Assembly (NCBI GenBank): GCA_036524675.1
Contig: DATDBU010000076.1
Coordinates: 1-35,847, forward strand
Length of the DNA stretch: 35,847 nucleotides
Source of the DNA: Chthoniobacterales bacterium
GTDB taxonomy: Bacteria > Verrucomicrobiota > Verrucomicrobiia > Chthoniobacterales > DASVRZ01
Reading direction: 5' to 3'
Below, piece by piece: positions 5,112 to 31,731 of this stretch (within the stretch, counting starts at the first letter, position 1; the number at the start of each line of letters is the position of its first letter). Under the pieces are notes generated by a model. That model ran no database searches. It saw only the letters and a program-made list of their open reading frames with translations, and was not told the DNA's origin. The position numbers and the translations under genes are program-made.

Positions 5112-7397
5112 ATGGACGGAAAACTTTTCACCCACAACCTCGGCTACCCCCGCATCGGCGAACAACGCGAACTCAAGAAAGCCACCGAAGCCTATTGGAA
5201 TGGCAAAATCTCCCGCGCCGAACTCGAAACAACAGGCCGGACATTGCGCGCGGCCCATTGGGCAAAACAAAAAGCTGCCGGAATCGACCTCATTCCCTGC
5301 AACGATTTTTCATTTTACGATCAAGTCCTTGGCCTGACGTGCCTCGTCGGAAACGTTCCGCCCCGCTTCGAGTGGGATTGCGAAATGGTCGACCTCGATA
5401 CGTATTTCCAAATCGCTCGCGGAACCGGTCGTCCCGGTTGCGAACACGGCTGTTCAACGCATGGAGGCACATTCGCCAGCGAAATGACGAAGTGGTTTGA
5501 TACGAATTATCACTACATTGTGCCCGAATTGCGGCTGGACACGAAGTTCCGGCTTTCGAGCACGAAAATTTTCGACGAGCTCGAAGAAGCGCAATCACTG
5601 GGCATCAACGCCAAGCCGGTGCTCATTGGCCCCGTGACGTATCTCACACTCGGCAAGGCGCAGGAAGATTTTGATCCGCATACTCTTCTAGATCCACTGG
5701 TTGCAGTTTATGAAGAAATTCTTCGGCGCCTCAAAGTGCTCGGTGTCGAATGGGTGCAACTCGACGAACCTGTTTTGGCGTTCGACCTCTCAGATAGGCA
5801 GCTCAACGCTCTTAAGACCGCTTATGCGCGCCTCGCCAAAGTGGGCCCGAAAATGATGGTCGCGACCTATTTCGGGCCGCTACGTGAAAATTTGCCGCAT
5901 TTTCTGGAATTGCCTGTGGCTGCTCTGCACTACGACGCCGTTCGAGGCGCGGAGGATCTGGACCGTTTGTTTACCCGGTTTCCAGAGCACAAAATCCTGT
6001 CTCTCGGTGTCGTCGACGGCCGCAATATTTGGAAAAACGACTTCGACAGCTCGCTGGCTGTGCTCGACAGAGCCCGAAAGGCGGTTGGCGAAGAACGGCT
6101 TTGGATCGCGCCGTCTTGTTCGCTTCAACACAGTCCGATCACACTGAAGAACGAGCCGGGGTTGGATCCGGAGTTCAGGAGCTGGCTTGCTTTTGCTGAC
6201 GAAAAACTGGCCGAAGTCGTTGCATTGTCTGCTCTTACGCCTGAAGCACTCGAGGAAAACCGCGCCGCTTTGGCTTCCCGGAACCAAAGTCCGCGGATTC
6301 ACGATCCAAAAGTCAAAACGCGACTCGCGGCTGTTCAGAACGCCGATTTCGAGCGATCAGCGCCGTTCGCTCAGCGTCGAAAATTGCAACGCGAGAAACT
6401 GAAACTGCCATCGTTTCCGACAACCACGATTGGTTCATTTCCGCAAACAGCGGAAATCCGCACAGCTCGCGCAAAGTGGAAACGCGGTGAAATGCAACCC
6501 GCAGCATATGAGGCCTTTATCAAGGGCGCCATCCGGGAATGTGTCGCATTCCAGGATTCGATTGGCATCGACCTGCCCGTGCACGGCGAGTTCGAACGCA
6601 ACGACATGGTCGAGTATTTCGGAGAACAACTTTCCGGTTTCGCATTTACTAAAAATGGTTGGGTGCAGAGCTACGGCACCCGATATGTAAAACCGCCGAT
6701 CCTTTTCGGAGACGTGAGCCGTCCGCACCCTATGACTGTCCACTGGTCTGAATTTGCTCAAACGCTGACGGAGCGACCGATGAAAGGCATGCTCACAGGA
6801 CCGGTAACGATTTTGCAATGGAGCTTCGTCCGCGACGACCAGCCGCGTTCCGAGACCGCCTGGCAGATCGCTCTCGCAATCCGGGATGAAGTGATCGACT
6901 TGGAGAAGGCTGGGATCGCTGCCATTCAAATCGATGAGCCAGCTCTGCGCGAAGGACTTCCATTGCGCCACGCCGATTGGGAACATTATCTGGACTGGGC
7001 GGTAAAAGCCTTCCGGCTTTGTGCCTGCGGCGTATGTGACGACACGCAAATCCATACGCACATGTGTTATTCGGAATTCAACGATATCATCACCGCCATC
7101 GCTGCCCTGGACGCCGATGTGATCACCATTGAGACTTCGCGCTCGAATATGGAGTTGTTGGATGCGTTCGTCGATTTTGCCTACCCGAACGAAATTGGGC
7201 CCGGAGTCTGGGATATCCATTCGCCGCGCGTTCCCGGCGTCGAAGAGATGGAAAACCTTCTCCGTAAAGCCAAAGCCGTAATTCCACCGGAGAATCTGTG
7301 GGTAAATCCCGACTGCGGTCTCAAAACACGCGGCTGGGAGGAAGTGAAACCTGCCTTACGGAATATGGCCCAGGCAGCATGCAATTTGAGGGTCTAG
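5112..7397 (+). CDS. metE: 5-methyltetrahydropteroyltriglutamate--homocysteine S-methyltransferase (cobalamin-independent methionine synthase)
   Basis: About 760 aa with two MetE domains. The N-terminus [31 protein letters not shown] matches the canonical MetE start (M..HTLGFPRIG.RRELKKA). The C-terminal catalytic domain carries the zinc-binding MetE signature residues. The start at 5112 is preferred over 5052 on homology grounds and leaves an 88-bp divergent intergenic region. Confidence 0.95.
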
Positions 7398-9817: not shown

Positions 9818-10918
9818 CTATGGATGAAACGTGAACGAGAATGGCATTTCGAGACGCCCGGTGGGCAGCGTCAATGCGACTTCGTCAGGGATTGGTGGCA
9901 GTTCGGAGTCGACGATAGATTGGATGCAGATACTTGCCAAACCCTCGTTGGCAGTGTTCGAGAGCACGCGGACATTGTCGATCTTGCCGTCTTTACTGAT
10001 GTTAAAAATGACCTGGACCCGGCCGGGGCCAATCAAGTCTGCATCGCGGCGAACATAGTAATACCACCGGGAACCGATTGCGCGATAAACCTGGTTGAAA
10101 TACCGGCCCAGCGGTGTGCCGCGAGTCGCAATCGATGGCCTGCCATGATTTGAAATGCTGCCCTGCAATTCGGATGCCTGGGTCTGCGGACGAAAGGTGC
10201 CGCCGGCTGACGAAGACGGCTTTGCAGGAGCGCCTCCTCCGGCCGGGCTGGGCGAAGCGGTCGGACTCGGGGTCGCAGTAGGGGTGGGCGTGGGCGTTGG
10301 CGTTGGTGTCGCCCGCTCAATGGCCAGTGCATCGTCGGGGAGTTTATCCGGCGGCGGAGTCGGTGTCGGGAGTGCCGTGCTTGGTTTCAGCAGCGGATTG
10401 TCTAGTTTGGCAAGGTCGGTCGCGGTTTTCGCTGGTTCCTGACGGGCCTGGTTTTGCTGCTGCTGCTGTGCAGGCTGATTCTGCGAAGGACGCCCTTGAG
10501 CTGCCCCCGCACCAGCACTGCCGAGCGAAAGCTGTTGATCGGCCAATTCCAGATGATCCTGTTTTCTACCCTCGATGGCCGGCATGTTTTTTGGGCCAGT
10601 TCCCGCTTTTTCCGATGCAGCCAGAGTATCGCGATCCGACTCGAATGACGTATTTTCGGGCGGTTTTTCCGCTTCGGTCATGTTCTCCGACCGCAGCAAT
10701 TCCGGTTCAGGAGTCGGCGTTGGAGCTGCGCCGAGGCGAGGGTCGGGCGTGGGCGTCGGTTCCGCTATGAGGGTAATTTCAGGAGGCAAATCCCGCTCAG
10801 GAACTTTCGCCGAAGCTTGCGGGCGCACGCTGAGCCACGTCCCAAATCCGAAAAAGAAAAGGACATGAAGAAGAAGGGAGCCGATGACCGCAATGGTCAC
10901 TTTCTTCTTTTCAGACAT
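9818..10918 (-). CDS. tonB: TonB-family energy transducer (Pro-rich linker, C-terminal TonB domain)
   Basis: N-terminal TM anchor, long Pro/Thr/Gln-rich spacers (TPTPTPDP, TPTPTPTPTATPSPTASPSP) and a C-terminal domain. It lies directly upstream of exbB-exbD on the same strand. Confidence 0.75.
   Translation of the reverse strand: MSEKKKVTIAVIGSLLLHVLFFFGFGTWLSVRPQASAKVPERDLPPEITLIAEPTPTPDPRLGAAPTPTPEPELLRSENMTEAEKPPENTSFESDRDTLAASEKAGTGPKNMPAIEGRKQDHLELADQQLSLGSAGAGAAQGRPSQNQPAQQQQQNQARQEPAKTATDLAKLDNPLLKPSTALPTPTPPPDKLPDDALAIERATPTPTPTPTPTATPSPTASPSPAGGGAPAKPSSSAGGTFRPQTQASELQGSISNHGRPSIATRGTPLGRYFNQVYRAIGSRWYYYVRRDADLIGPGRVQVIFNISKDGKIDNVRVLSNTANEGLASICIQSIVDSELPPIPDEVALTLPTGRLEMPFSFTFHP
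10284..10310. repeat. Simple-sequence repeat (GTGGGCGT/GTTGGC units) encoding the TonB (TP)n tract
   Basis: The string gtgggcgtgggcgttggcgttggtgtc is read directly. A second similar GGGCGTGGGCGT stretch lies near 10735-10760. Confidence 0.6.
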
Positions 10919-22234: not shown

Positions 22235-24280
22235 TTATGACTCCGTCCCAGCAGGCTCGGCAGCCGGATTTTCCTGGCTTACGTTCAAGCCACTCTTTGC
22301 GTCGATCAGCAGGGCAAGCAGTTGATTCACGAGGGTGGGGTTGCCAGCGGCGGGCGGTTGGCCATCGCCCCCGCCGACGCCGCCGAACATGAACATCCGC
22401 TCCGGCACGAGTGGCTGTGTGCTCTGAGCGAAATGCTCAGACACAAGGTTGAGTGCGAACAGACGCGGGTCGCCATAAGCGCGGATTTTTTGCAAGTTCA
22501 CCGAGGCTTCCGCGCGGCCGATCTGGCTGATCTTCGCGGCTTCACCAGCGCCGAGGAGTTCGCGCGATCGGGACTCACCTTCCGCACGGACGATGTCCCG
22601 TTTCGCAAGACGTTGCGCCTCGGCGAGTTGCGCTTCACCTTTGTTCGCAGAGACTTCGACTTCGATCTTGGTCTGCGTGAGTTCGGTTTGTTTCGCGGCG
22701 GCGGCTTGGGCCTCGTTGAGGTCCTGGAGTTGACGCGCGGCTTCCTGCTGTTTGCCGAACGTTTCCTTTTGTTCCTCGGCAAGCCGGCGCAGACGCAATT
22801 GATCGAACAAGGTCTCGATAGACGTTTGTCCCTCCTTCGATTCCGGGCGTCCGATCAGCACGGCGACGCAGGTGATGTCGTACGTCGAAAACCGGCGTCC
22901 CAGCTCCTCGGTGCCACGGCGCTGGATTTCTTCGCGCTTCGTGAGCAGGTCGAGCATGTGCGAGCTTTGCGCCACGTCGCGGAAATACGCAGTGAGGATC
23001 GGGTCGAGCGTCTGGCTGATGAGCCGTTTTACGTCGCCGAAACGCTGCACGACGCTGGAGGCTTTTTCGTAGTCGATGTGCAACACGAGCGACAGCGGGA
23101 GCACGGGCTCGTAGCCGTCGGCGGTGATGAGTTCGATGCTTTCCAAATCGGCGTCATACCGATGTGCCTCGACCTGGCCGGTGATCCAGCGCAGGACGAA
23201 ATTGACCGTGGGCACGAGTTCGATCTTCAGCGCGTAAGGGTTAAGCGCGTATTTGCCGGGCGGCAGGCCGCGACGCCACACGCCGCGGTTGCCGTGTTCG
23301 ACCTGTTCGCCGTAGCGGAATGCCGTGCCGGTCGTATCCATGCCTTGCGAACCGTAATAGGCCACGACGACGCCTACGTATCCGATGGGGATGATGGTTT
23401 TCGGTTTTTCTTCGACCGTGGCAAACCAGCGATTGATGTAAAACGTACCGTCGGTGAGCACCTGGAGCTGTTTACCGCGGCGCCCGCCCAATGCGAGGAA
23501 GACCTGCGGATCCTGGAAATAATTGTGATCCGCAGTGGTATCGCTGGTTTTTACCTCGGGAGCGATGATTTCTCCGGAAGGAATCGGCGGGCCATCATGC
23601 ACGGTGACGACGCCAAGCGTGTCCGTGCGCAGCAAGTCGGCCTGGGCTTCGGCGTCTGTTTTTAACGCGGGCGGAGGGAAATCCTCGCCGTTACTGACCG
23701 AGCGGGCCGCACCAATGAGAACGGGGCTGAAGCCGCGTTGCGAGGCAAGTTCCGTCTGCCAGGCGGCGTATTTGTTATCCTCGCGTTGAAGACCCGGGCC
23801 GCTGTAAACGCGATCCTCGGTAATGACGACGAACAACGACAGGTTCACCGCGTAAACGCCTTCACGCAAAATCGCACGCTGGCGTCCGCGCTGACCGCCT
23901 TTTGATAGAAACGCCACGGCATCCTGGAAATGATTCGACTTCGGGATATCCGCAAGCGTCTGCGTTGGCGGGAGCGGTGCGCCGTCACGTGCATACACGT
24001 AACCGATTTTACCTTCGGAAACCGTGACAAGCGGCTGGCGATGAATGCGGTATTGCCACGGGAACAACCCGAAATGCACACCACCGCGCAGCAACGAGCA
24101 TTGGAAACCTGCCTCGCCATTGAGCGCGATGATGCGGCCTTCGGACAGCGAACCTTTGAACGACCAGAGTTTTTCAACGATACCGACTTTGTTGTGTGGG
24201 ATGTAACGGACGCCTAGCAAAACATACAGCGCAGGGATGCACAGGATCCATACGAACGGTGACTCAAACACTAGTGACAT
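22235..24280 (-). CDS. Flotillin-family (SPFH/band-7) membrane protein, YqiK-like
   Basis: N-terminal TM anchor (FVWILCIPALYVLLGV), SPFH domain and a long Ala/Glu/Gln-rich coiled-coil (AEEQKETFGKQQEAARQLQDLNEAQAAAAKQTE...). The start at 24280 has an AGGAAAAG ribosome-binding site upstream. Confidence 0.85.
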   Translation of the reverse strand: MSLVFESPFVWILCIPALYVLLGVRYIPHNKVGIVEKLWSFKGSLSEGRIIALNGEAGFQCSLLRGGVHFGLFPWQYRIHRQPLVTVSEGKIGYVYARDGAPLPPTQTLADIPKSNHFQDAVAFLSKGGQRGRQRAILREGVYAVNLSLFVVITEDRVYSGPGLQREDNKYAAWQTELASQRGFSPVLIGAARSVSNGEDFPPPALKTDAEAQADLLRTDTLGVVTVHDGPPIPSGEIIAPEVKTSDTTADHNYFQDPQVFLALGGRRGKQLQVLTDGTFYINRWFATVEEKPKTIIPIGYVGVVVAYYGSQGMDTTGTAFRYGEQVEHGNRGVWRRGLPPGKYALNPYALKIELVPTVNFVLRWITGQVEAHRYDADLESIELITADGYEPVLPLSLVLHIDYEKASSVVQRFGDVKRLISQTLDPILTAYFRDVAQSSHMLDLLTKREEIQRRGTEELGRRFSTYDITCVAVLIGRPESKEGQTSIETLFDQLRLRRLAEEQKETFGKQQEAARQLQDLNEAQAAAAKQTELTQTKIEVEVSANKGEAQLAEAQRLAKRDIVRAEGESRSRELLGAGEAAKISQIGRAEASVNLQKIRAYGDPRLFALNLVSEHFAQSTQPLVPERMFMFGGVGGGDGQPPAAGNPTLVNQLLALLIDAKSGLNVSQENPAAEPAGTES

Positions 24281-24972
24281 ACTAACTTTTCCTTTCTGGG
24301 AGAGAGTAATGATGCGAGTACGCGACAGGTTCCGGACTGAACCGGCATGGTAGGTCGCGAGAAAATCGCGAACCTCACACGATATTGGCGAGCCGCACCG
24401 CCGTAGCGGGCCACCAGCCAATGCTCCCTGTCAGACAGTCATGGAACAGTGAACCGGATCCTCCGATTCTCCAGGATACAGTACTGCCTGAAAGCGTTAA
24501 CAACGACCATAATTGATCTCCTTACCAAAGACGCTACGTACGGTCGCGGGAAAAAGCAAACGACGCACGGATGCCTGGGATGTTTAAGAAAGGAAGCACC
24601 GTTCGCTCTGTTAGCCTTATGGGCGCCTCCCGGGATGATTTCGTAAAATTCCCGCGCACGCGGCATTTGTTTGGGTCGATGGGGGACAGAGGATGACAAA
24701 CATCTCGGACGCCGCGAATCGGAGACTTTCATCCGCGATGCTTCGCTCGTTGGTAGAAGAAAACCTTGGGATTCAATTCACCGTGGCCGGACGCATGGTT
24801 TTGCAGTGTCGCGATCATGAAATTCACCGAGGGAATGCATCCGCGCATCCTGAACAAAGGCCGACGTGGACGTCGCCTCTACTTTGTGATCCGTGGTGCG
24901 CCTTGCCTGGGATTCCTCGTTTCCGTAGCTTGGAATCATGAAAACAACCATTGATATTCCTGAAAGGAACTC

Positions 24973-25221
24973 ATGGATGCCATTCGGTTCACCAATGCGA
25001 AAACCAAACGCGAAGCGGTGGTCGCTGCCCTACAGGATTTTAATCGCCGCCAGCGTATGGCCGCGCTGGTGAAACATCCGGGAACGTTTGATTCCCTGAT
25101 GACCAACGACGAAATCGAAAGCCTCGAAGAAACCCGGAACCCACTCGCTGGCATTGTAATCGAAACTCATCGATACGTCTTTGTGGGTCCACGCGCTGCG
25201 GCGCAATGGAGACAGCGATAA
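24973..25221 (+). CDS. Putative VapB-type antitoxin
   Basis: 82-aa ORF immediately upstream of and overlapping a PIN-domain ORF. A ribosome-binding site (gaaaggaactcATG) precedes it. The sequence AIRFTNAKTKREAVVAALQDFNRRQRMAALVKH is a helical DNA-binding-like N-terminus. Its C-terminal ~25 residues overlap the toxin in another frame. Confidence 0.55.
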   Translation: MDAIRFTNAKTKREAVVAALQDFNRRQRMAALVKHPGTFDSLMTNDEIESLEETRNPLAGIVIETHRYVFVGPRAAAQWRQR

Positions 25222-25537
25222 AAAGCAGATTGTCACCCAATTGCTCATCAACGGCGAAGCCGCCTGGTGTTCGGTTGTTCGCCTGGAACTCTGGAATGGC
25301 GTCGGCAGCGACAACGAACGACAGCCACTTCGCGAGTTCGAGGCCGCCATTCCCAATTACGCCGTCACGGACGAAGTCTGGGAAAGAGCCTTTGAGCTTG
25401 CGAGCCTTTGCCGCAAAGCAGGAAAGACCGCACCCGCGACGGACGTTTTGATCGCAGCCTGCGCGCGCCATCACGGCGTCGGAATCGAACATGCAGACGC
25501 GCATTTCGAATTTCTCATGGCCCTGGCTGGGGCGTGA
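25160..25537 (+). CDS. VapC-family PIN-domain toxin with no canonical start codon
   Basis: This frame encodes SKLIDTSLWVHALRR...(D-containing strand 1)...ATDVLIAACARHHGVGIEHADAHFE, a classic PIN/VapC pattern. An in-frame TAA at 25157-59 directly precedes it. The first canonical alternative start, TTG 25181, would delete the conserved LIDTS strand. Confidence 0.65.
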   Translation, partial: SKLIDTSLWVHALRRNGDSDKKQIVTQLLINGEAAWCSVVRLELWNGVGSDNERQPLREFEAAIPNYAVTDEVWERAFELASLCRKAGKTAPATDVLIAACARHHGVGIEHADAHFEFLMALAGA

Positions 25538-25690
25538 CGAGGACGGCCCATGTTGCTTTGGCAACCTCGTCGTTGTTTCCCTCAACACATACGCAAAATT
25601 GTCATTTTTCTCCCACGACCTCTATTTTCTTCTCTTAACATGAATTGATCTGGAAATCCGCGCTTGACGCGTTGTTGATCACCGTTCGCT

Positions 25691-26128
25691 ATGCATTATA
25701 TGTTTATTACTATCTTCTCTTGGGTTCTGTACATGATTGCCCTCGTACTGAAGTCATACGCCAACCATATCCGGTTTATGTCATTTGATGAGATGCCAAT
25801 GACATTTTCACGCTCACCGGGCTTCGCGTCCAAGTTTTGGCTAACGAGATTGGTCGTCACATACGGGTCCTTTGCTGGGCTATGGTTTGTACACGGAGTC
25901 TATGTCCTAATCGGAGCATTTCTTTTTTATCGGCTGGTCTGCTTCTTCACATTTGGGAGAGGTTATAGGAGCTCGGTCAACAGGTGGGCGCGACTTGACC
26001 TCGAAAGACAGCGACTTGAGGCAATAAAGAATGGAGAGAATTTCGACAAAATAGGAGCTTGGCTTAAGGCGGTTAAGTCGGCGAGTGGCTGGATTAAAGA
26101 AAATGCAACTAGAAACGGATCTCTGTGA
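25691..26128 (+). CDS. Hypothetical small membrane protein (low-GC cassette, gene 1)
   Basis: 145 aa with two or three TM helices (FITIFSWVLYMIALVL; LVVTYGSFAGLWFVHGVYVLIGAFLFYRLVCFF) and a charged C-terminal helix. The DNA is markedly AT-richer than its surroundings. Its stop overlaps the next start (ATGA at 26125-28). Confidence 0.5.
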   Translation: MHYMFITIFSWVLYMIALVLKSYANHIRFMSFDEMPMTFSRSPGFASKFWLTRLVVTYGSFAGLWFVHGVYVLIGAFLFYRLVCFFTFGRGYRSSVNRWARLDLERQRLEAIKNGENFDKIGAWLKAVKSASGWIKENATRNGSL

Positions 26129-26655
26129 CTGATTCCACTTCCCGAAAAACGTTAAGCTCTTCATCTATGCGAAGTCAAAAACCTAGAAAGCGAACGGCGT
26201 GGCTTATCACTTGGGAATCATCTCGTAGAGACTACCTTGCTGATTTGAATCGTCCTCGCGTCGTCGCCATTCTTAAGCCGCAGATTTCATCCTCGACCAT
26301 CAGACAGCTCCTTCCCGTCCTGTTCATATCGGAGTCTAAGCTCACTTTTTCGGAGAAAATCGCTTACAGCTTTTTTAGACGCCATGTTCGATGGCTTCGC
26401 GACGACCTGCGACGCATTTGCTGCGGCGATAACCCATGGCTTGAGGCGCGGCTTGTGAAGGAGTTATACGTCGAGACCTATCCAGACACTAGTTGTCGCG
26501 AAAAGCTGCATTGGACTGAACATCCGCGCCACTCATTGACGCCTAGCGACACCGATCCCGAACGCCACTGTTTAGAAGACACAAAATTTGATATGCTTTG
26601 GTATGGACGCGGGGGAAAAGGGGGCATGCAGCAAATGTTAACAGATTTGCATTAA
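26125..26655 (+). CDS. Hypothetical soluble protein (low-GC cassette, gene 2)
   Basis: 176 aa, translationally coupled to gene 1. No motif recognised. An alternative start lies at Met15 (26167). It has a Gly-rich C-terminus (WYGRGGKGGMQQ). Confidence 0.45.
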   Translation: MTDSTSRKTLSSSSMRSQKPRKRTAWLITWESSRRDYLADLNRPRVVAILKPQISSSTIRQLLPVLFISESKLTFSEKIAYSFFRRHVRWLRDDLRRICCGDNPWLEARLVKELYVETYPDTSCREKLHWTEHPRHSLTPSDTDPERHCLEDTKFDMLWYGRGGKGGMQQMLTDLH

Positions 26656-26764
26656 CGCTGGCGGAAAAACTTTGAGCAACGCAATCAATTTTCCTCTTCA
26701 CCGCGCCGGACGGGGCTGTGAAATGGATTGTTTTTTCGAAGACGATCTTCCAGAGTAATCGAAG

Positions 26765-27166
26765 TTAGCGCGTAGAAAGGCGCTGGACGTCCGGATAGTC
26801 CAGGATTTTCCGGTCAGATGTGACCACCGTGAGATTGTGGCTACGGGCGGTGGCCGTGATGATCCGGTCGGCGGGATCTCCGTGGAATTCTCCGGTCAGG
26901 TTGTTGGAATCGATGGCGATCTCCGGCGTGATGCGGAGGAGCAGGATGAGGTTTCGCTGTGTGGCGCGACGCATCCAGACATCCAGTGGAGTATGCAGAA
27001 TAATACGTCCCTTCGCCTGTAGCATGCCGACTTCCCAAAGGCTTATATCGGAAAGTCCGAGTGTCGATTCGGCATTCAGGCGTTGTCTTGACGCGTCCGA
27101 TAATCTCTCCGGTTCGTTGAAAAGCCAGAGCCATGCATTGGTATCGAGGATCAGGCTAGGAAACAT
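26765..27166 (-). CDS. VapC-family PIN-domain toxin
   Basis: MFPSLILDTNAWLWLF... (catalytic Asp strand), ...SLWEV... and ...DRIITATARSHNLTVVTSDRK: a canonical PIN fold pattern. Confidence 0.85.
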   Translation of the reverse strand: MFPSLILDTNAWLWLFNEPERLSDASRQRLNAESTLGLSDISLWEVGMLQAKGRIILHTPLDVWMRRATQRNLILLLRITPEIAIDSNNLTGEFHGDPADRIITATARSHNLTVVTSDRKILDYPDVQRLSTR

Positions 27167-27171
27167 CGCCG

Positions 27172-27459
27172 CTAGTCAACAATTCCATTGATGGCATTCC
27201 ACTCCTCAGGGGCGCAAGCTGACTCGTCCGGGTTGTAGTCCGACGAGAATTCCATCAAACCTCGGCCGCTGCCCGCCCATTCTGCGATCGTTGGCGCCTT
27301 TTCTTCCTCCGGAGGTTCGATGATGGCGACAACTTTCCCATGGCGGGTGATATGGAGGATAACTCCAGTTTCTTCGACTTCCCGGAGCGCCTGCGTGCAG
27401 TGGGTCTTAAATTCGGAAATAGGAATCGACCGGATGCCGGGAGAAGGCTCGATTTTCAT
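27172..27459 (-). CDS. Phd/YefM-family antitoxin
   Basis: IPISEFKTHCTQALREVEETGVILHITRHGKVVAIIEPP matches the Phd/YefM N-terminal fold. It ends 5 nt upstream of the PIN toxin start and has an acidic C-terminal tail. Confidence 0.8.
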   Translation of the reverse strand: MKIEPSPGIRSIPISEFKTHCTQALREVEETGVILHITRHGKVVAIIEPPEEEKAPTIAEWAGSGRGLMEFSSDYNPDESACAPEEWNAINGIVD

Positions 27460-27604: not shown

Positions 27605-28789
27605 ATGAGCATTCGGCCAAAAGACATCATTTATCTCGACAGCAACGGGACCACCTCCGTGGACCCTGCCGTGGTGTCGGAAATGATGCCTTACCTGACC
27701 GACTTTTATGGCAACCCGAGCAGCGCCTACGGCTTCGGATCTCAGTTGAAAGAAGCCATCGACACCGCACGCGAACGCATCGCCGCCCTCATCGGATGCG
27801 ATCCCTCTGAAATCATTTTCACCTCCTGCGGCACGGAATCCAACAACGCGGTGCTTCAATCCGCGCTCGTCACAGATCCGGATCGCCAGCACATCATCAC
27901 AAGCACCGTCGAGCACAGCGCCATCATCAAACATGGTGAAACGCTGGCCAAACGGGGCATTGAAGTGACCTGGCTTCCCGTCGACTTCACAGGACGTCTG
28001 GATCTGGATGACTTAAAAAAAGCGATACGACCTGATACGGCGCTGGTTTCCCTAATGTGGGCCAACAACGAGACCGGCGTTCTGTTTCCAATCGAAGAAG
28101 CCGCCGAAATCGCCCGCGAAAAAGGCGTTCTGTTTCACACGGACGCCGTCCAAGCCGTGGGTAAAATTCCGATCAATCTGCGGAACACCAAGGTCAATTT
28201 TCTTTCACTGAGCGGGCATAAGCTCCACTGTCCCAAAGGAATAGGAGTGCTTTACGTCAACCGCCGGACACGTTTTAACTCGTATCTCATTGGTGGCGGC
28301 CAGGAAAATGGCAAACGCGCCGGCACGGAAAATGTCCCTTACATCGTTGGACTCGGCAAAGCCGCGGAACTGGCGCGGGAAACGATGGATTACGAGAATA
28401 CCGAGGTAAAAAAACTGCGCGACCATTTCGAGAACACTCTCCTTGATGCGGTGGATGGCATTGAAGTGAATGGCGATCGCGAATTGCGGCTCCCGAACAC
28501 ATCCAACGTGGCCATCCACGGTGTCGAAAGCGAGGCGTTGCTCATTCTGCTCGATCAGAAAGGCATTTGTTGCTCTGGCGGTTCGGCGTGTACGACTGGT
28601 TCGCTCCATCCCTCGCACGTTTTGATTGGGATGGGATTTTCGGCCGAACGAGCGCGCGGCAGCGTGCGGTTTTCGTTCAGCCGGTTCAACACGCAGGACG
28701 AAATCGATCGCGCGTTGAAAATCATCATCGAAGCGATCCAGCGTTTGAGGCGCTTGAGCCCCAAACAGGTGCAGGTTGTCGCACGATAA
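27605..28789 (+). CDS. Cysteine desulfurase (class V aminotransferase, NifS/IscS type)
   Basis: IYLDSNGTT, PLP-lysine motif LSLSGHKLHCPKGIG and catalytic-Cys loop CSGGSACTTGS. Confidence 0.9.
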   Translation: MSIRPKDIIYLDSNGTTSVDPAVVSEMMPYLTDFYGNPSSAYGFGSQLKEAIDTARERIAALIGCDPSEIIFTSCGTESNNAVLQSALVTDPDRQHIITSTVEHSAIIKHGETLAKRGIEVTWLPVDFTGRLDLDDLKKAIRPDTALVSLMWANNETGVLFPIEEAAEIAREKGVLFHTDAVQAVGKIPINLRNTKVNFLSLSGHKLHCPKGIGVLYVNRRTRFNSYLIGGGQENGKRAGTENVPYIVGLGKAAELARETMDYENTEVKKLRDHFENTLLDAVDGIEVNGDRELRLPNTSNVAIHGVESEALLILLDQKGICCSGGSACTTGSLHPSHVLIGMGFSAERARGSVRFSFSRFNTQDEIDRALKIIIEAIQRLRRLSPKQVQVVAR

Positions 28790-28915: not shown

Positions 28916-29728
28916 TTGAAGAGGGTCGCTCCAATCGTCACCGTTATCGCTCGCACCGCGTTCACCGCGGGATTTGTCTCCCACCACCGGTCGTTCTCGC
29001 CGAAAATAAAACCATTGATTCTGCTGGCCGTCGTCATGCTTGCGGCTGTTCCGGCGATGGCCCAGCAAATCGTCAACAAAAACGCAGGCTGGGTTTCGGA
29101 ATGGACGACTAGACTTGGGCCTTTTGAAGCGGGAAGCGCGGTCCCAAGGATGGAAGTATCCAAGGCATTCCAGCGCGAAAACTACAAGAAGGCTGCCCGG
29201 GTCGCTCGGGAATGGACTATCAGCCAGCCCGACAATTTTGAAGCTTGGGGGTGGCTTGCTGCGGCTTGCTCTGGAGCAAAACAGTGGCAGGAAGGCGAAC
29301 AGTCGGCTACGCGGCTGCTTGCTTTTTCCGATGTCCCGTCCAGCTATCGCTCGGCCGGCCTCAACAATCGTGCCAATTGCCGTTTTCATCTGAAAAAGTT
29401 CGCCGGCGCAGAAGCAGATTCCCGTCAGGCGATGCAGTTAAGACCGGATGCTGACAACCAGAACCAACTTGCCTGGTTTCTGGCAACTTGTCCCGATAGC
29501 AAAATGAGGAATGGGCGCGAAGCCGTCGCCCTCGCAAATCGCGCTCTGAAACTGAATTCCGACCCCGCCATCATGGACACATTGGCCGCAGCGTATGCTG
29601 AAACCGGCGATTTTCCCTCGGCCGTAGAGTGGCAGAAAAAGGCGAACAAGGATCCCAAAACCAACAAGGAAGGGGCCAAACGGCTCAAACTTTATCAGGG
29701 CAACCGACCGTATCGAGACGATGCATAA
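28916..29728 (+). CDS. Secreted TPR-repeat protein
   Basis: Signal-peptide-like segment (KIKPLILLAVVMLAAVPAMAQQ) followed by TPR-like helical repeats (W/A/Y spacing, e.g. AWGWLAAACSGAKQW, LAAAYAETGDFPSAVEWQKKA). Its stop overlaps the next ATG by 8 nt. The exact start is uncertain. Confidence 0.65.
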   Translation: MKRVAPIVTVIARTAFTAGFVSHHRSFSPKIKPLILLAVVMLAAVPAMAQQIVNKNAGWVSEWTTRLGPFEAGSAVPRMEVSKAFQRENYKKAARVAREWTISQPDNFEAWGWLAAACSGAKQWQEGEQSATRLLAFSDVPSSYRSAGLNNRANCRFHLKKFAGAEADSRQAMQLRPDADNQNQLAWFLATCPDSKMRNGREAVALANRALKLNSDPAIMDTLAAAYAETGDFPSAVEWQKKANKDPKTNKEGAKRLKLYQGNRPYRDDA

Positions 29729-30701
29729 ATCTTTCCTCCGAATTTTAGCGATAGCCGTCGCCCTCGTCGTCCTTTCCTTCACCGCCAGTATTGCTGCAAC
29801 GCTCGGGGGAAGCGTAGATGCGGGCAAATTCCCCGGCTATGTTGTGGTCCCACTCGGCCGTTCAGAAGGAAATCATCTCGTCATCCCAGCCGTCATCGGG
29901 TCAAAACGTGTCCAGTTTATCGTCGACACCGGAGCGCCCCAGTCCGTCATTGACGCAGGAGTCGCGCGCAAACTCCAACTTCCGCCACCGCCACCAGGTA
30001 GCGGCCTCCCAGCCAAAATCGCCATCGGCGAACAATTGCGGGATATCGTTCTGTTGCCGAACCTGATTGTTCAGGGGATGGACCTTGGAGGCGGGCCGAT
30101 GACGGCCGCGAAAGGCTACAAGAGTTTTACCCTATCCTTAAAAGGCAAATTCGATGACTCCGACGGCTTGTTCGGCAACGACATCCTGACGCGCCAAAAT
30201 GCGATCCTCAATTGCAAGACACAGCAATTGTTTCTCAACACCGATCCGAAACTGATTACAGATCCTTCCCCCGCGCTGCAAAAAGCAGGCTACGTCCGCA
30301 TTCCTCTCAAGGTCGCTGGGCATCTCTTTGCGCCGTGCAAACTCAATGGGAAGGACTTTTGGATTATCGTGGATACCGGCGCAGCGCTTACGACAGTGGA
30401 ATCTGAGGTCCTCAAAAGCCGCGGGATAAAATCGATAACAACGCCTGTTTACTCGTCTGGAATCAGCCTTTCAGGCCGCGACCTCCGATATGTGCCTTTT
30501 GAGGCTCATAAACTTTCCATTGGCGGCGTCTCAATCGCACAAGACATCACCGCAAGGAACCTGGAAGGCTTTTTCAGCGAAGAAAAACAGGTTATCGGAC
30601 TTCTGGGAGCGGAAGTGCTCCACCGTCACAGCGCCGTGATTGATTTCCCCCACAAGGCACTTTGGCTCCGGCCAATGCCGGCTGTCTCACGGAGAAAATA
30701 G
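29721..30701 (+). CDS. Secreted aspartic protease with two retropepsin-like domains
   Basis: Signal peptide MHKSFLRILAIAVALVVLSFTASIAA. Two DTG catalytic motifs (FIVDTGAPQSVI and IIVDTGAALTTV), each followed by the G-hydrophobic 'flap/dimer' motif (GLFGNDILTRQNAIL, GLLGAEVLHRHSAVIDF). Confidence 0.75.
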   Translation: MHKSFLRILAIAVALVVLSFTASIAATLGGSVDAGKFPGYVVVPLGRSEGNHLVIPAVIGSKRVQFIVDTGAPQSVIDAGVARKLQLPPPPPGSGLPAKIAIGEQLRDIVLLPNLIVQGMDLGGGPMTAAKGYKSFTLSLKGKFDDSDGLFGNDILTRQNAILNCKTQQLFLNTDPKLITDPSPALQKAGYVRIPLKVAGHLFAPCKLNGKDFWIIVDTGAALTTVESEVLKSRGIKSITTPVYSSGISLSGRDLRYVPFEAHKLSIGGVSIAQDITARNLEGFFSEEKQVIGLLGAEVLHRHSAVIDFPHKALWLRPMPAVSRRK

Positions 30702-30714
30702 GAGCATTCCGTCG

Positions 30715-31731
30715 AAAATGGGGGAAATCGGGGGATTAAATTGGCGTTGTGTAAACGTTATCAGCAGCTTCGGCTCAAAACCACGGTCGCGACGATGCAC
30801 AGGACGGTTTGCAGCAAGTCGTTCTGGGTTTGGTGCAGCAATTTTTAGTGCCGCATTGGCCTTCCTGATCAGTCTCGCATGCGCTCAGACGCTGGAAGTG
30901 CCCGGATACGAAAAAATTCCGCTTCGTCTTGGTGATGAGGGCCATTTGTTGATGAGTTCCCGGATCAAGGGCCAGAAAATCGTTTTCGTCGTCGATACCG
31001 GCGCTCCCACGGGGATATTGGATCGCGAAAAAGCCCGCGCCCTCGGACTGAAACCGGAAAACGAATTTGGTGACGGGCGGCGCGAGGAAACCGTGATTCT
31101 TTCCGACCTGATGTCCGGGAACGTGCGGCTTGGCAACATTTCAATCGCGGTTGGCGACAGCCTGCCCCAAAGACAACGTACGTTTTATCGGGGTGAGGCT
31201 GACGTCGTTCACGGACTTCTAGGCAGCGACATCCTCGCTCGTCACGCCGCAATTATCGATTTCCGAAACCGGATACTTTTCCTCAGGCGCGCGCCAGAAA
31301 CCCAAGCGATGGTCGCAACGCAGCTCGGCAATACACGTTATGTCCCAGTGCCGTTTCGCAATAGCCGCTGGCTTTACGCTCCCGTTCAATTGAGGGGACG
31401 GAAATTTTCCGCCATTGTAGACACCGGCTCCGCGGTGACGATACTGCGAAGCCGCACCATCGCCCGGCTTGGCGTCCGATCGAAAAACTCGATGATTTGG
31501 GTGAGAGGACTTGGCATCGCTCCCCGCCGACTCCGGCTCGTTCAGAACACTGATCATAGCCTCACAGTCGGCGACACACCTATTCGGACCGAGTTTCATG
31601 TAATGCCAGGCGCGGATTTCTTTGGGAAACAGCCCCGGGATTTTATCGGAATTCTGGGCAACGACCTGCTCATTCATCATGGCGCAGTGATCGACTACGG
31701 TCACAATACCCTGTGGTTGCTACCGGATTGA
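30715..31731 (+). CDS. Secreted aspartic protease, tandem paralog (two retropepsin-like domains)
   Basis: Same architecture: FVVDTGAPTGIL and AIVDTGSAVTIL, with GLLGSDILARHAAIIDF and GILGNDLLIHHGAVIDY. It has a long n-region signal peptide (...RRCTGRFAASRSGFGAAIFSAALAFLISLACAQT). The start is chosen at the ATG 14 nt after the upstream stop, with an AGGAG site. An ATG at 30640 is an alternative. Confidence 0.75.
   Translation, partial: KMGEIGGLNWRCVNVISSFGSKPRSRRCTGRFAASRSGFGAAIFSAALAFLISLACAQTLEVPGYEKIPLRLGDEGHLLMSSRIKGQKIVFVVDTGAPTGILDREKARALGLKPENEFGDGRREETVILSDLMSGNVRLGNISIAVGDSLPQRQRTFYRGEADVVHGLLGSDILARHAAIIDFRNRILFLRRAPETQAMVATQLGNTRYVPVPFRNSRWLYAPVQLRGRKFSAIVDTGSAVTILRSRTIARLGVRSKNSMIWVRGLGIAPRRLRLVQNTDHSLTVGDTPIRTEFHVMPGADFFGKQPRDFIGILGNDLLIHHGAVIDYGHNTLWLLPD

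Follow-up and report, generated by a model that had tools for sequence, protein, structure and literature searches.

A low-GC gene pair between two toxin-antitoxin modules of a Chthoniobacterales bacterium has relatives among integron cassettes

What brings two small AT-rich genes of no recognisable family together between two toxin-antitoxin (TA) modules of a bacterial chromosome? We addressed this question for a 35,847-nt stretch of DNA from a Chthoniobacterales bacterium (GenBank assembly GCA_036524675.1, contig DATDBU010000076.1, positions 1 to 35,847; hereafter the window), in which two open reading frames (ORFs), here called gene 1 and gene 2, follow each other on the forward strand. A preliminary description regarded them as a translationally coupled, horizontally acquired system, either a membrane effector with a soluble partner or a membrane toxin with its immunity protein. 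The genomic settings of their relatives point to another answer: the two are probably separate accessory genes from the integron cassette pool, acquired horizontally. They would have entered as an insert of about 1.2 kb with low G+C content (GC) between two chromosomal TA modules and would now stand there without integron machinery.

Both protein families are integron-cassette families, with attC-bounded members in arrays, one of these beside the integrase IntI. At locus L111, about 19 copies of an element of approximately 100 nt, GCC(G/C)AAC...GTT(C/G)GGC, lie between small co-oriented genes. The element was assigned as attC because it carries the signature RYYYAAC...GTTRRRY of integron attC sites. 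Its consensus folds into a terminal R''/R' stem and an inner L stem, with 13 of the 23 predicted pairs compensated on both sides, and the L111 bottom strand folds far better than shuffled sequences (z -3.6). Relatives of gene 1 and gene 2 lie together between the attC sites at 5894-5992 and 6864-6962, with none between them, and thus form one two-gene cassette.

Two covariance models were used to find such sites elsewhere, R1 built from the L111 sites only and R2 from sites that R1 had found in unrelated loci. R1 thus detects attC outside the array of its origin, and R2 adds further loci. As an internal control against false positives, 85 of 86 matches in the R2 scan were on the strand of the gene. 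The resulting locus counts are lower bounds, and the models derive from few arrays. attC was found in 34 of 102 gene-2 loci (11 of 57 after dereplication) and was adjacent to the gene in 25. In eleven loci the gene-2 relative is bracketed on both sides as a single-gene cassette (L001, L009, L038, L046, L048, L050, L051, L054, L079, L081 and L084). The gene-1 loci with attC are L111/L112, L116 and L117.

A complete integron is present on the soil metagenome contig Ga0137375_10054084 (L050, 246-4354), with at least five cassettes, the gene-2 relative being the last, and with a GTTAGGT core near the start of the first cassette ORF. Its IntI is upstream of the array and divergent from it, and shares 51% identity with IntI1 across 331 aa (E 2.5e-99), a match that validates the IntI1 sequence used as probe. 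Locus L109 has an integrase similar to that of L050. On contig JBJMHA010000021.1 of a Thermoanaerobaculia metagenome-assembled genome (L009, 6934-8645), two successive cassettes, each of them attC-bounded, encode an Mrr-type restriction endonuclease and a gene-2 relative, providing an example of a restriction enzyme as integron cassette.

The array with the two-gene cassette has further features. L111 (1-12432) and L112 are stretches of the metagenome contigs ERZ27248448 k141_1341472 and Ga0182027_10007316, and in the stretch examined no integrase was called. Among its genes are matches to YCII, DAGK and two immunity families, Imm-NTF2-2 and DUF4265. The L111 array also contains an inserted IS110-family transposase; some IS110/IS1111 elements target attC sites.

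If the two genes formed one system, they should be found together. The survey comprised about 102 loci for gene 2 (57 after dereplication) and about 11 distinct loci for gene 1, i.e., the window and some 10 others. A gene-1 relative was present in none of the approximately 102 gene-2 loci, as judged by tblastn and by a hidden Markov model (HMM) run on six-frame ORFs, and gene 1 was found without gene 2 in nine of the 10 other loci. The single other pair is that of L111/L112, where a distant gene-2 member of 128 aa begins 37 nt after a gene-1 relative with 46% identity; this distant member was recognised by the HMM with E 1e-13 and is 44% identical to the family member P0178 and 23% identical to gene 2 of the window. 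The 37-nt spacer is unrelated in sequence to the 38-nt spacer of the window. The gene-1 copies of L111, L116 and L117 are mutually 69-73% identical and only that of L111 has gene 2; in L116 and L117 an attC directly follows gene 1, which is therefore the last gene in its cassette. Gene 2 of the window groups with solo cassettes at 50-68% identity.

The surroundings of gene 2 are equally variable. No conserved neighbour beyond close relatives emerged from an all-against-all comparison. The 148 genes within two positions of gene-2 relatives in the 57 dereplicated loci fall into 103 Pfam families with at most three members each. The gene directly 5' encodes an Mrr-type nuclease (L009), a type IIG restriction enzyme (L020), a solute-binding protein, ALAD or GluRS, and membrane proteins are not enriched at this position (11/33 vs 125/483). 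The pair is not a conserved unit. A check for conservation, which had been proposed at the outset, therefore gave a largely negative answer, with the L111/L112 cassette as the one recurrence, and the view of a membrane effector with a soluble partner as a conserved system is not borne out.

A weaker form of that view holds that the genes form a facultative two-component module, membrane-anchored gene 1 and soluble gene 2 sharing one cassette (e.g., a defence sensor with a membrane effector), whereas solo gene 2 would be simpler or use other partners. We regard this as possible but unlikely. The recurrence inside one cassette with the same order and strand and with spacers of 37 and 38 nt is what such a module would give, and because gene-2 family members are few (671 among 1.84 billion cluster representatives), adjacency by chance is unlikely on a genome-wide scale. 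Shuffling within an array, however, gives odds of about 1 in 19 for adjacency, after which the loss of one attC would fuse the cassettes. The module also has to accommodate the complete absence of gene 1 from the gene-2 loci, and a gene-1 subclade in which gene 2 is once present and twice absent. The paired gene-2 copies are only 23% identical while the paired gene-1 copies are 46% identical, the window gene 2 being nearer to solo cassettes, and there is no excess of membrane proteins 5' of gene-2 relatives. In favour of the module, two-gene defence cassettes and defence cassettes containing transmembrane (TM) helices are known (bioRxiv 10.1101/2024.07.02.601719).

The same distribution bears more heavily on a membrane toxin encoded by gene 1 with gene 2 as its immunity protein or antitoxin. 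A pair of small neighbouring genes on one strand, set amid TA modules, might suggest such an arrangement, and two-gene integron cassettes include TA systems (bioRxiv 10.1101/2024.07.02.601719). Each gene, however, stands alone in most loci: gene 1 lacks gene 2 in nine of 10 other loci, being followed directly by attC in two and standing elsewhere beside IleRS or NfeD, and gene 2 lacks gene 1 in about 102, so that co-occurrence is not obligate. Searches of Pfam, NCBIfam, PADLOC and PHROGs moreover gave no homology to toxin, antitoxin or immunity families. Because a membrane toxin needing gene 2 could not occur alone in most loci, this explanation is nearly excluded.

The neighbours of gene 1 were inspected individually. 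At L003, fatty-acid synthesis genes are upstream and a SIR2-like fragment is downstream. L026 has HIT and IleRS, L113 a ParE module and a protein of 227 aa without assigned family, and L116 a weak DUF5677 match and IS3. The L003 fragment (6711-7007), directly 3' of the gene-1 relative, is a truncated protein whose sequence begins MIKEPTVFILGAGAS; its SIR2 match is weak (E 2e-4). Directly 3' of the gene-1 relative of L110, at 682-1437, is a DUF2971 protein that corresponds to the PADLOC defence candidate PDC-S31 (E 1e-59). Gene 1 seems to occur recurrently ahead of variable, defence-like cargo.

Both ORFs are real genes under purifying selection, since relatives exist and non-synonymous changes are far rarer than synonymous ones. 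The non-synonymous to synonymous rate ratio (dN/dS) ranges from 0.13 to 0.45 over both families and from 0.15 to 0.29 for gene 1, and the proportion of non-synonymous differences (pN) is well below that of synonymous ones (pS) in each, so the concern that the ORFs might lack a coding signal is unfounded. Neither belongs to a recognisable family, as was already stated in the preliminary description: gene 1 has no significant match in Pfam, NCBIfam, PADLOC or PHROGs, and neither gene 2 nor seven of its distant relatives matches these collections. No housekeeping homology was found for either protein, and PADLOC-DB 2.0 returned no defence family for either, even at E<=1.

Gene 2 has 48 relatives in a collection of 5.8 billion protein clusters, and an exhaustive profile search against 1.84 billion cluster representatives (50% identity) retrieved the 671 members mentioned above at E<=1e-3. 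Among the 150 of these 671 that were listed, members have 85-250 aa with a single matched stretch apiece. A genome scan placed members in Verrucomicrobia, Thermoanaerobaculia, Acidobacteria, Bacteroidales, Desulfobacterales, Actinomadura, Bifidobacterium, Peribacteria, Deinococcales and others, with Actinomycetes and candidate phyla among the groups represented. Sequence motifs include AWLITWE, RPRVVAIL, CGxNPWLxARxV and LHWTE, and the positions conserved over 118 diverse members (W12, L13, W16, G87, L92, A94, R95, V97 and W116) are mostly core residues, which suggests that there is no obvious catalytic set. In the AlphaFold2 (AF2) model (pLDDT 83, pTM 0.74) an N-terminal beta-alpha-beta-alpha part is joined to a C-terminal sheet of long hairpins, and gene 2 is predicted to encode a soluble alpha/beta protein. 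The model has no structural neighbour among solved or viral structures, and sequence-profile searches of the PDB gave no match with either a narrow or a broad alignment. Gene 2 represents an undescribed, fairly widespread family without neighbour among solved structures.

No confirmed relative of either gene was found in viral contigs, and phage records gave no match for a gene-2 relative. The only match among 72,556 plasmid records is a weak one on the Arthrobacter sp. MMS18-M83 plasmid NZ_CP113344.1 (34394-34702; L118, 4001-4309). This stretch is unannotated and encodes part of a gene-2-family relative, which aligns to 54% of one family member at 34% identity and comes after the genes for a DNA adenine methylase and a hypothetical protein. 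Fusion proteins were considered as a functional clue for gene 2 and dismissed, as the few long members look like miscalled starts or read-throughs.

The gene-1 family is smaller, with five relatives in the collection of 5.8 billion clusters and 20 through a profile, all metagenomic. The protein has three hydrophobic helices (approximately residues 4-20, 49-67 and 69-88) followed by a 53-residue C-terminal tail that is basic and amphipathic (11 K/R, 6 D/E). A loop motif MPxxFSRSPGF and a C-terminal RNG(N/S)L are conserved. The AF2 model is all-helical (pLDDT 81), and we accordingly predict a small inner-membrane protein with three TM helices, in which loop and basic tail would be cytoplasmic by the positive-inside rule. 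The earlier assignment of gene 1 as a small multi-pass membrane protein with a charged tail is upheld, the cytoplasmic side of the tail being deduced.

Both ORFs that had been reported on the plus strand, 25691..26128 and 26125..26655, are present, and their coordinates and those of the adjoining features are collected in Table 1. For gene 2 the start deserves attention. Conservation begins at the Met of ATG 26167, which is also the start of most homologues ('MR.RKPKKRNAWLITWE' in a 38-sequence alignment), and in cassette-borne homologues attC ends 3 nt 5' of the Met aligned with this ATG. Because conservation and start sites of the homologues begin there, GTG 26125 is an improbable start, and the alignment indicates that gene 2 most likely has 162 aa and begins 38 nt 3' of gene 1. 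The length of 176 aa in the preliminary description is therefore most likely wrong. The overlap of the ORFs, moreover, is GTGA (GTG 26125/TGA 26126-26128) and not ATGA, and with a start at ATG 26167 translational coupling through this overlap is unsupported. By eye, no Shine-Dalgarno-like motif is apparent in the 26129..26166 spacer. It would be speculative to see in the AAC followed by GTTAAGC of this spacer what is left of an attC core.

Table 1. Coordinates of the gene pair and of the features around it in the window.
Feature	Position	Strand	Remarks
Upstream flanking TA module	24973..25537	+	VapB-like antitoxin 24973-25221 and PIN toxin (ORF from TTG 25181); GC 0.57
Intergenic region 5' of gene 1 (153 nt)	25538..25690	+	GC 0.47; attC, fold and promoter scans unremarkable
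Gene 1	25691..26128	+	145 aa; ATG 25700 is an alternative possible start
Spacer between gene 1 and gene 2 (38 nt)	26129..26166	+	Contains AACGTTAAGC (26148-26157)
Gene 2	26167..26655	+	162 aa; long ORF 26125..26655 (176 aa, from GTG 26125) probably unused
Intergenic region from gene 2 stop to stop of convergent PIN gene (109 nt)	26656..26764	+	attC-sized, not attC
Downstream flanking TA module	26765..27459	-	PIN toxin 26765-27166 and Phd/YefM antitoxin 27172-27459; GC 0.555

In the window, the region 5' of gene 1 would drive both genes as a bicistron. A weak sigma-70-like site, TTGTCA-18-TATTTT, is found there at 25599-25628; promoter-like sites are at chance level in the scan (3 observed vs 2.4 expected), and so are the counts of the terminator scan. 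A 20-nt inverted repeat around the pair (25636-25655/26748-26767, 75% complementary) was discarded as chance, 37 comparable pairs being present in the same 3.2 kb.

The composition of the pair is foreign to the window. Its GC is 0.477 compared to 0.555 for the whole window (z = -3.6), the lowest of all 965-bp stretches there, and the GC at third codon positions (GC3) is 0.51 and 0.52 for the two genes, below every one of the 18 large window ORFs (0.62 +/- 0.03, minimum 0.565). Horizontal acquisition is indicated because both GC and silent-site composition, with GC3 about three standard deviations (SD) below the window genes, are atypical. The AT-richness noted by eye is confirmed in this way, and the foreign origin derived from it is supported. 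Relatives of gene 2 are likewise GC-poorer than the host locus in 13 of 14 loci. A native, vertically inherited pair, with low GC due to the amino-acid composition of a membrane protein or to local mutational bias, would agree with the scans of the window, in which no tRNA and no Rfam family was found and no integrase, attC or transposase was present near the pair. Since silent sites are atypical too and the relatives are patchy, cassette-borne and in unrelated neighbourhoods, we regard this explanation as highly improbable.

Several observations weigh against a cassette origin of the pair. With filters off, neither R1 nor R2 detected attC in 25538-25690, 26129-26166 or 26656-26764; the lone match below E 0.1 in the window (E 0.03) is inside an ORF at 10028. 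The DNA of 25538-25690 folds no better than shuffles (z -1.4 and -0.4), and that of 26656-26764 gave no hairpin signal (z -0.3 and +0.35), compared to -3.6 and -2.8 for two genuine attC sites. A tblastn search with the IntI1 probe found no integrase in the 35.8-kb window, and an integron remnant in the window was rejected on the two covariance models, DNA folding and the integrase search. The window copy does not form part of a cassette array either, its neighbours being housekeeping genes and TA modules, the downstream one convergent. With no attC or integrase there, its cassette origin is deduced from the relatives and from the foreign composition. Even among the relatives, attC accompanies only about one third of the gene-2 loci and three of the 10 other gene-1 loci, as a lower bound, and it is equally conceivable that integrons picked up these families from ordinary islands. 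The same gene order, orientation and spacing of 37-38 nt in two divergent loci argues for a functional link, which purely independent genes do not predict. On balance, the window copy is most likely a stranded relative of cassette genes, which we do not class as a cassette itself.

As separate cassette-derived genes, the two proteins would have the role of typical cassette cargo, a dispensable, niche-specific function. Gene 1 would be located in the inner membrane with loop and tail facing the cytoplasm, and gene 2, which is alone in most genomes and for that reason appears self-sufficient, would be a cytoplasmic single-domain protein. An anti-phage role, with each protein acting separately, is the most probable single class of function, although still not a likely one. 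Here the prior of about one third from screens and the presence of some defence neighbours are offset by unenriched neighbourhoods and the silent PADLOC search.

More specifically, gene 2 alone might be a single-gene anti-phage protein, comparable to phage-resistance cassettes (BRiCs), with gene 1 as unrelated cargo. This, too, is conceivable without being likely. The family is compact, cassette-borne and patchy over many phyla, and copies occur directly 3' of restriction enzymes (Mrr in L009, type IIG in L020). Gene-1 relatives are found beside the PDC-S31/DUF2971 protein and the SIR2-like fragment, and the prior from screens is about one third (bioRxiv 10.1101/2024.07.02.601719). Defence and mobile genes, however, account for no more than about 9% of these 148 neighbouring genes of gene-2 relatives in a rough count over the 25 families listed, many neighbours are housekeeping genes, PADLOC gave no match, and the protein has no recognisable enzymatic or nucleotide-binding motif.

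Gene 2 might also encode an orphan immunity protein that counters an interbacterial toxin and is stockpiled as other immunity cassettes are. A small soluble protein of the cytoplasm that mostly occurs alone would suit this role, and the L111/L112 array is shared with the two immunity families named above. The protein has no similarity to described immunity families, however, and no toxin genes were seen beside about 100 loci among the 25 commonest neighbour families listed, which makes this role improbable. It is rather doubtful, though somewhat less so, that gene 2 represents a new-fold family of self-sufficient, cassette-borne defence or conflict proteins, with gene 1 as a membrane adaptor that can be packed into the same integron cassette, in which case the window would hold a working two-part version. 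Of the undescribed system that had been proposed, the undescribed families remain, and the case for a two-gene defence system is much weaker than suggested.

The place of the pair between a VapB-VapC and a Phd-VapC module was described correctly. Both flanks have a PIN domain beside a VapB or Phd antitoxin, as in PIN-domain (VapC-type) TA modules, and both are chromosome-like in GC. In the upstream module the VapB_antitoxin match is marginal (5.8e-5, just under the cut-off) and the neighbouring PIN match has 1.8e-6; the downstream module, which is convergent with gene 2, gave 9.7e-16 for PIN and 3.2e-8 for PhdYeFM. The upstream VapC-like PIN frame is open from 25160, reading SKLIDTSLWVHALRR, and overlaps the 82-aa VapB ORF by about 60 nt. 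Its first catalytic Asp codon (25172-25174) precedes the first ATG, GTG or TTG (TTG 25181), with just a non-canonical ATC (25169) before it, so this toxin may have an unusual start or may be crippled at its N-terminus.

Further out, the window neighbours are housekeeping genes (GluRS, shikimate dehydrogenase, an SPFH protein, cysteine desulfurase at 27605-28789 and a topoisomerase). The SPFH gene at 22235-24421 on the minus strand encodes a flotillin-like protein of 687-728 aa that has a TM segment at its N-terminus and a single, central SPFH/Band 7 domain. In L028 the gene-1 relative is directly 5' of an NfeD gene, and SPFH proteins usually have NfeD as their partner; the parallel may be coincidence. 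Between the SPFH gene and VapB, the approximately 550 bp of 24422-24972 have no convincing ORF, no Rfam match and a slightly low GC (0.52). On the other side, at 28916-31731 on the plus strand, the gene for a TPR protein precedes two tandem genes that overlap slightly and that each encode two retropepsin-like aspartyl-protease domains (Asp_protease_2/gag-asp_proteas).

Integron cassettes form a very large reservoir of function-unknown genes, many of which were phage-protective in recent screens. As a widespread cassette family with a confident model and no match in Pfam or among solved structures, gene 2 is a reasonable target for phage-protection screens. The window illustrates how cassette genes may become stranded in ordinary chromosomal islets without an integron signature, where they escape automated integron or defence finders.

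Among known systems, abortive-infection systems such as RexAB and the TM-effector variants of CBASS and Thoeris pair a small membrane effector with a soluble sensor. The window pair resembles these superficially, with a small multi-pass membrane protein beside a soluble one in an accessory island, but its partnership is not conserved, its parts stand alone elsewhere, and there is no sequence or fold similarity. Two-gene type II TA modules share with it the short, adjacent, co-oriented genes, the TA neighbours and the one shared cassette of L111, whereas the pair differs in that its co-occurrence is not obligatory and toxin or antitoxin homology is lacking.

Clusters of attC sites without integrase (CALIN) and insertion of cassettes at secondary sites have been described (Cury et al. 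2016, PMC4889954). Several relatives are similar to CALIN, for example L001, which has three attC on a 352-kb chromosomal contig and no integrase called in the stretch examined. By definition a CALIN has two or more attC; the window has none and does not qualify, although it could represent the final stage of such decay.

The closest known category is that of integron cassettes of unknown function, including the phage-resistance cassettes. Among mobile-integron cassettes whose function is unknown, at least one third confer phage protection, about one third of the protective cassettes contain TM helices, and homologues of the protective cassettes occur outside integrons without attC (bioRxiv 10.1101/2024.07.02.601719). 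The window copy differs from BRiCs in that attC, an array and an integrase are all missing, PADLOC models match neither of the two proteins, and the arrays of the relatives are from uncultured soil and sediment bacteria instead of clinical mobile integrons. In common with BRiCs, both genes are small and without known domains, one encodes a TM protein and one two-gene cassette is known, and the relatives are compact, co-oriented and attC-bounded in arrays, one of which has IntI. Homologues of the two families likewise occur outside integrons without attC.

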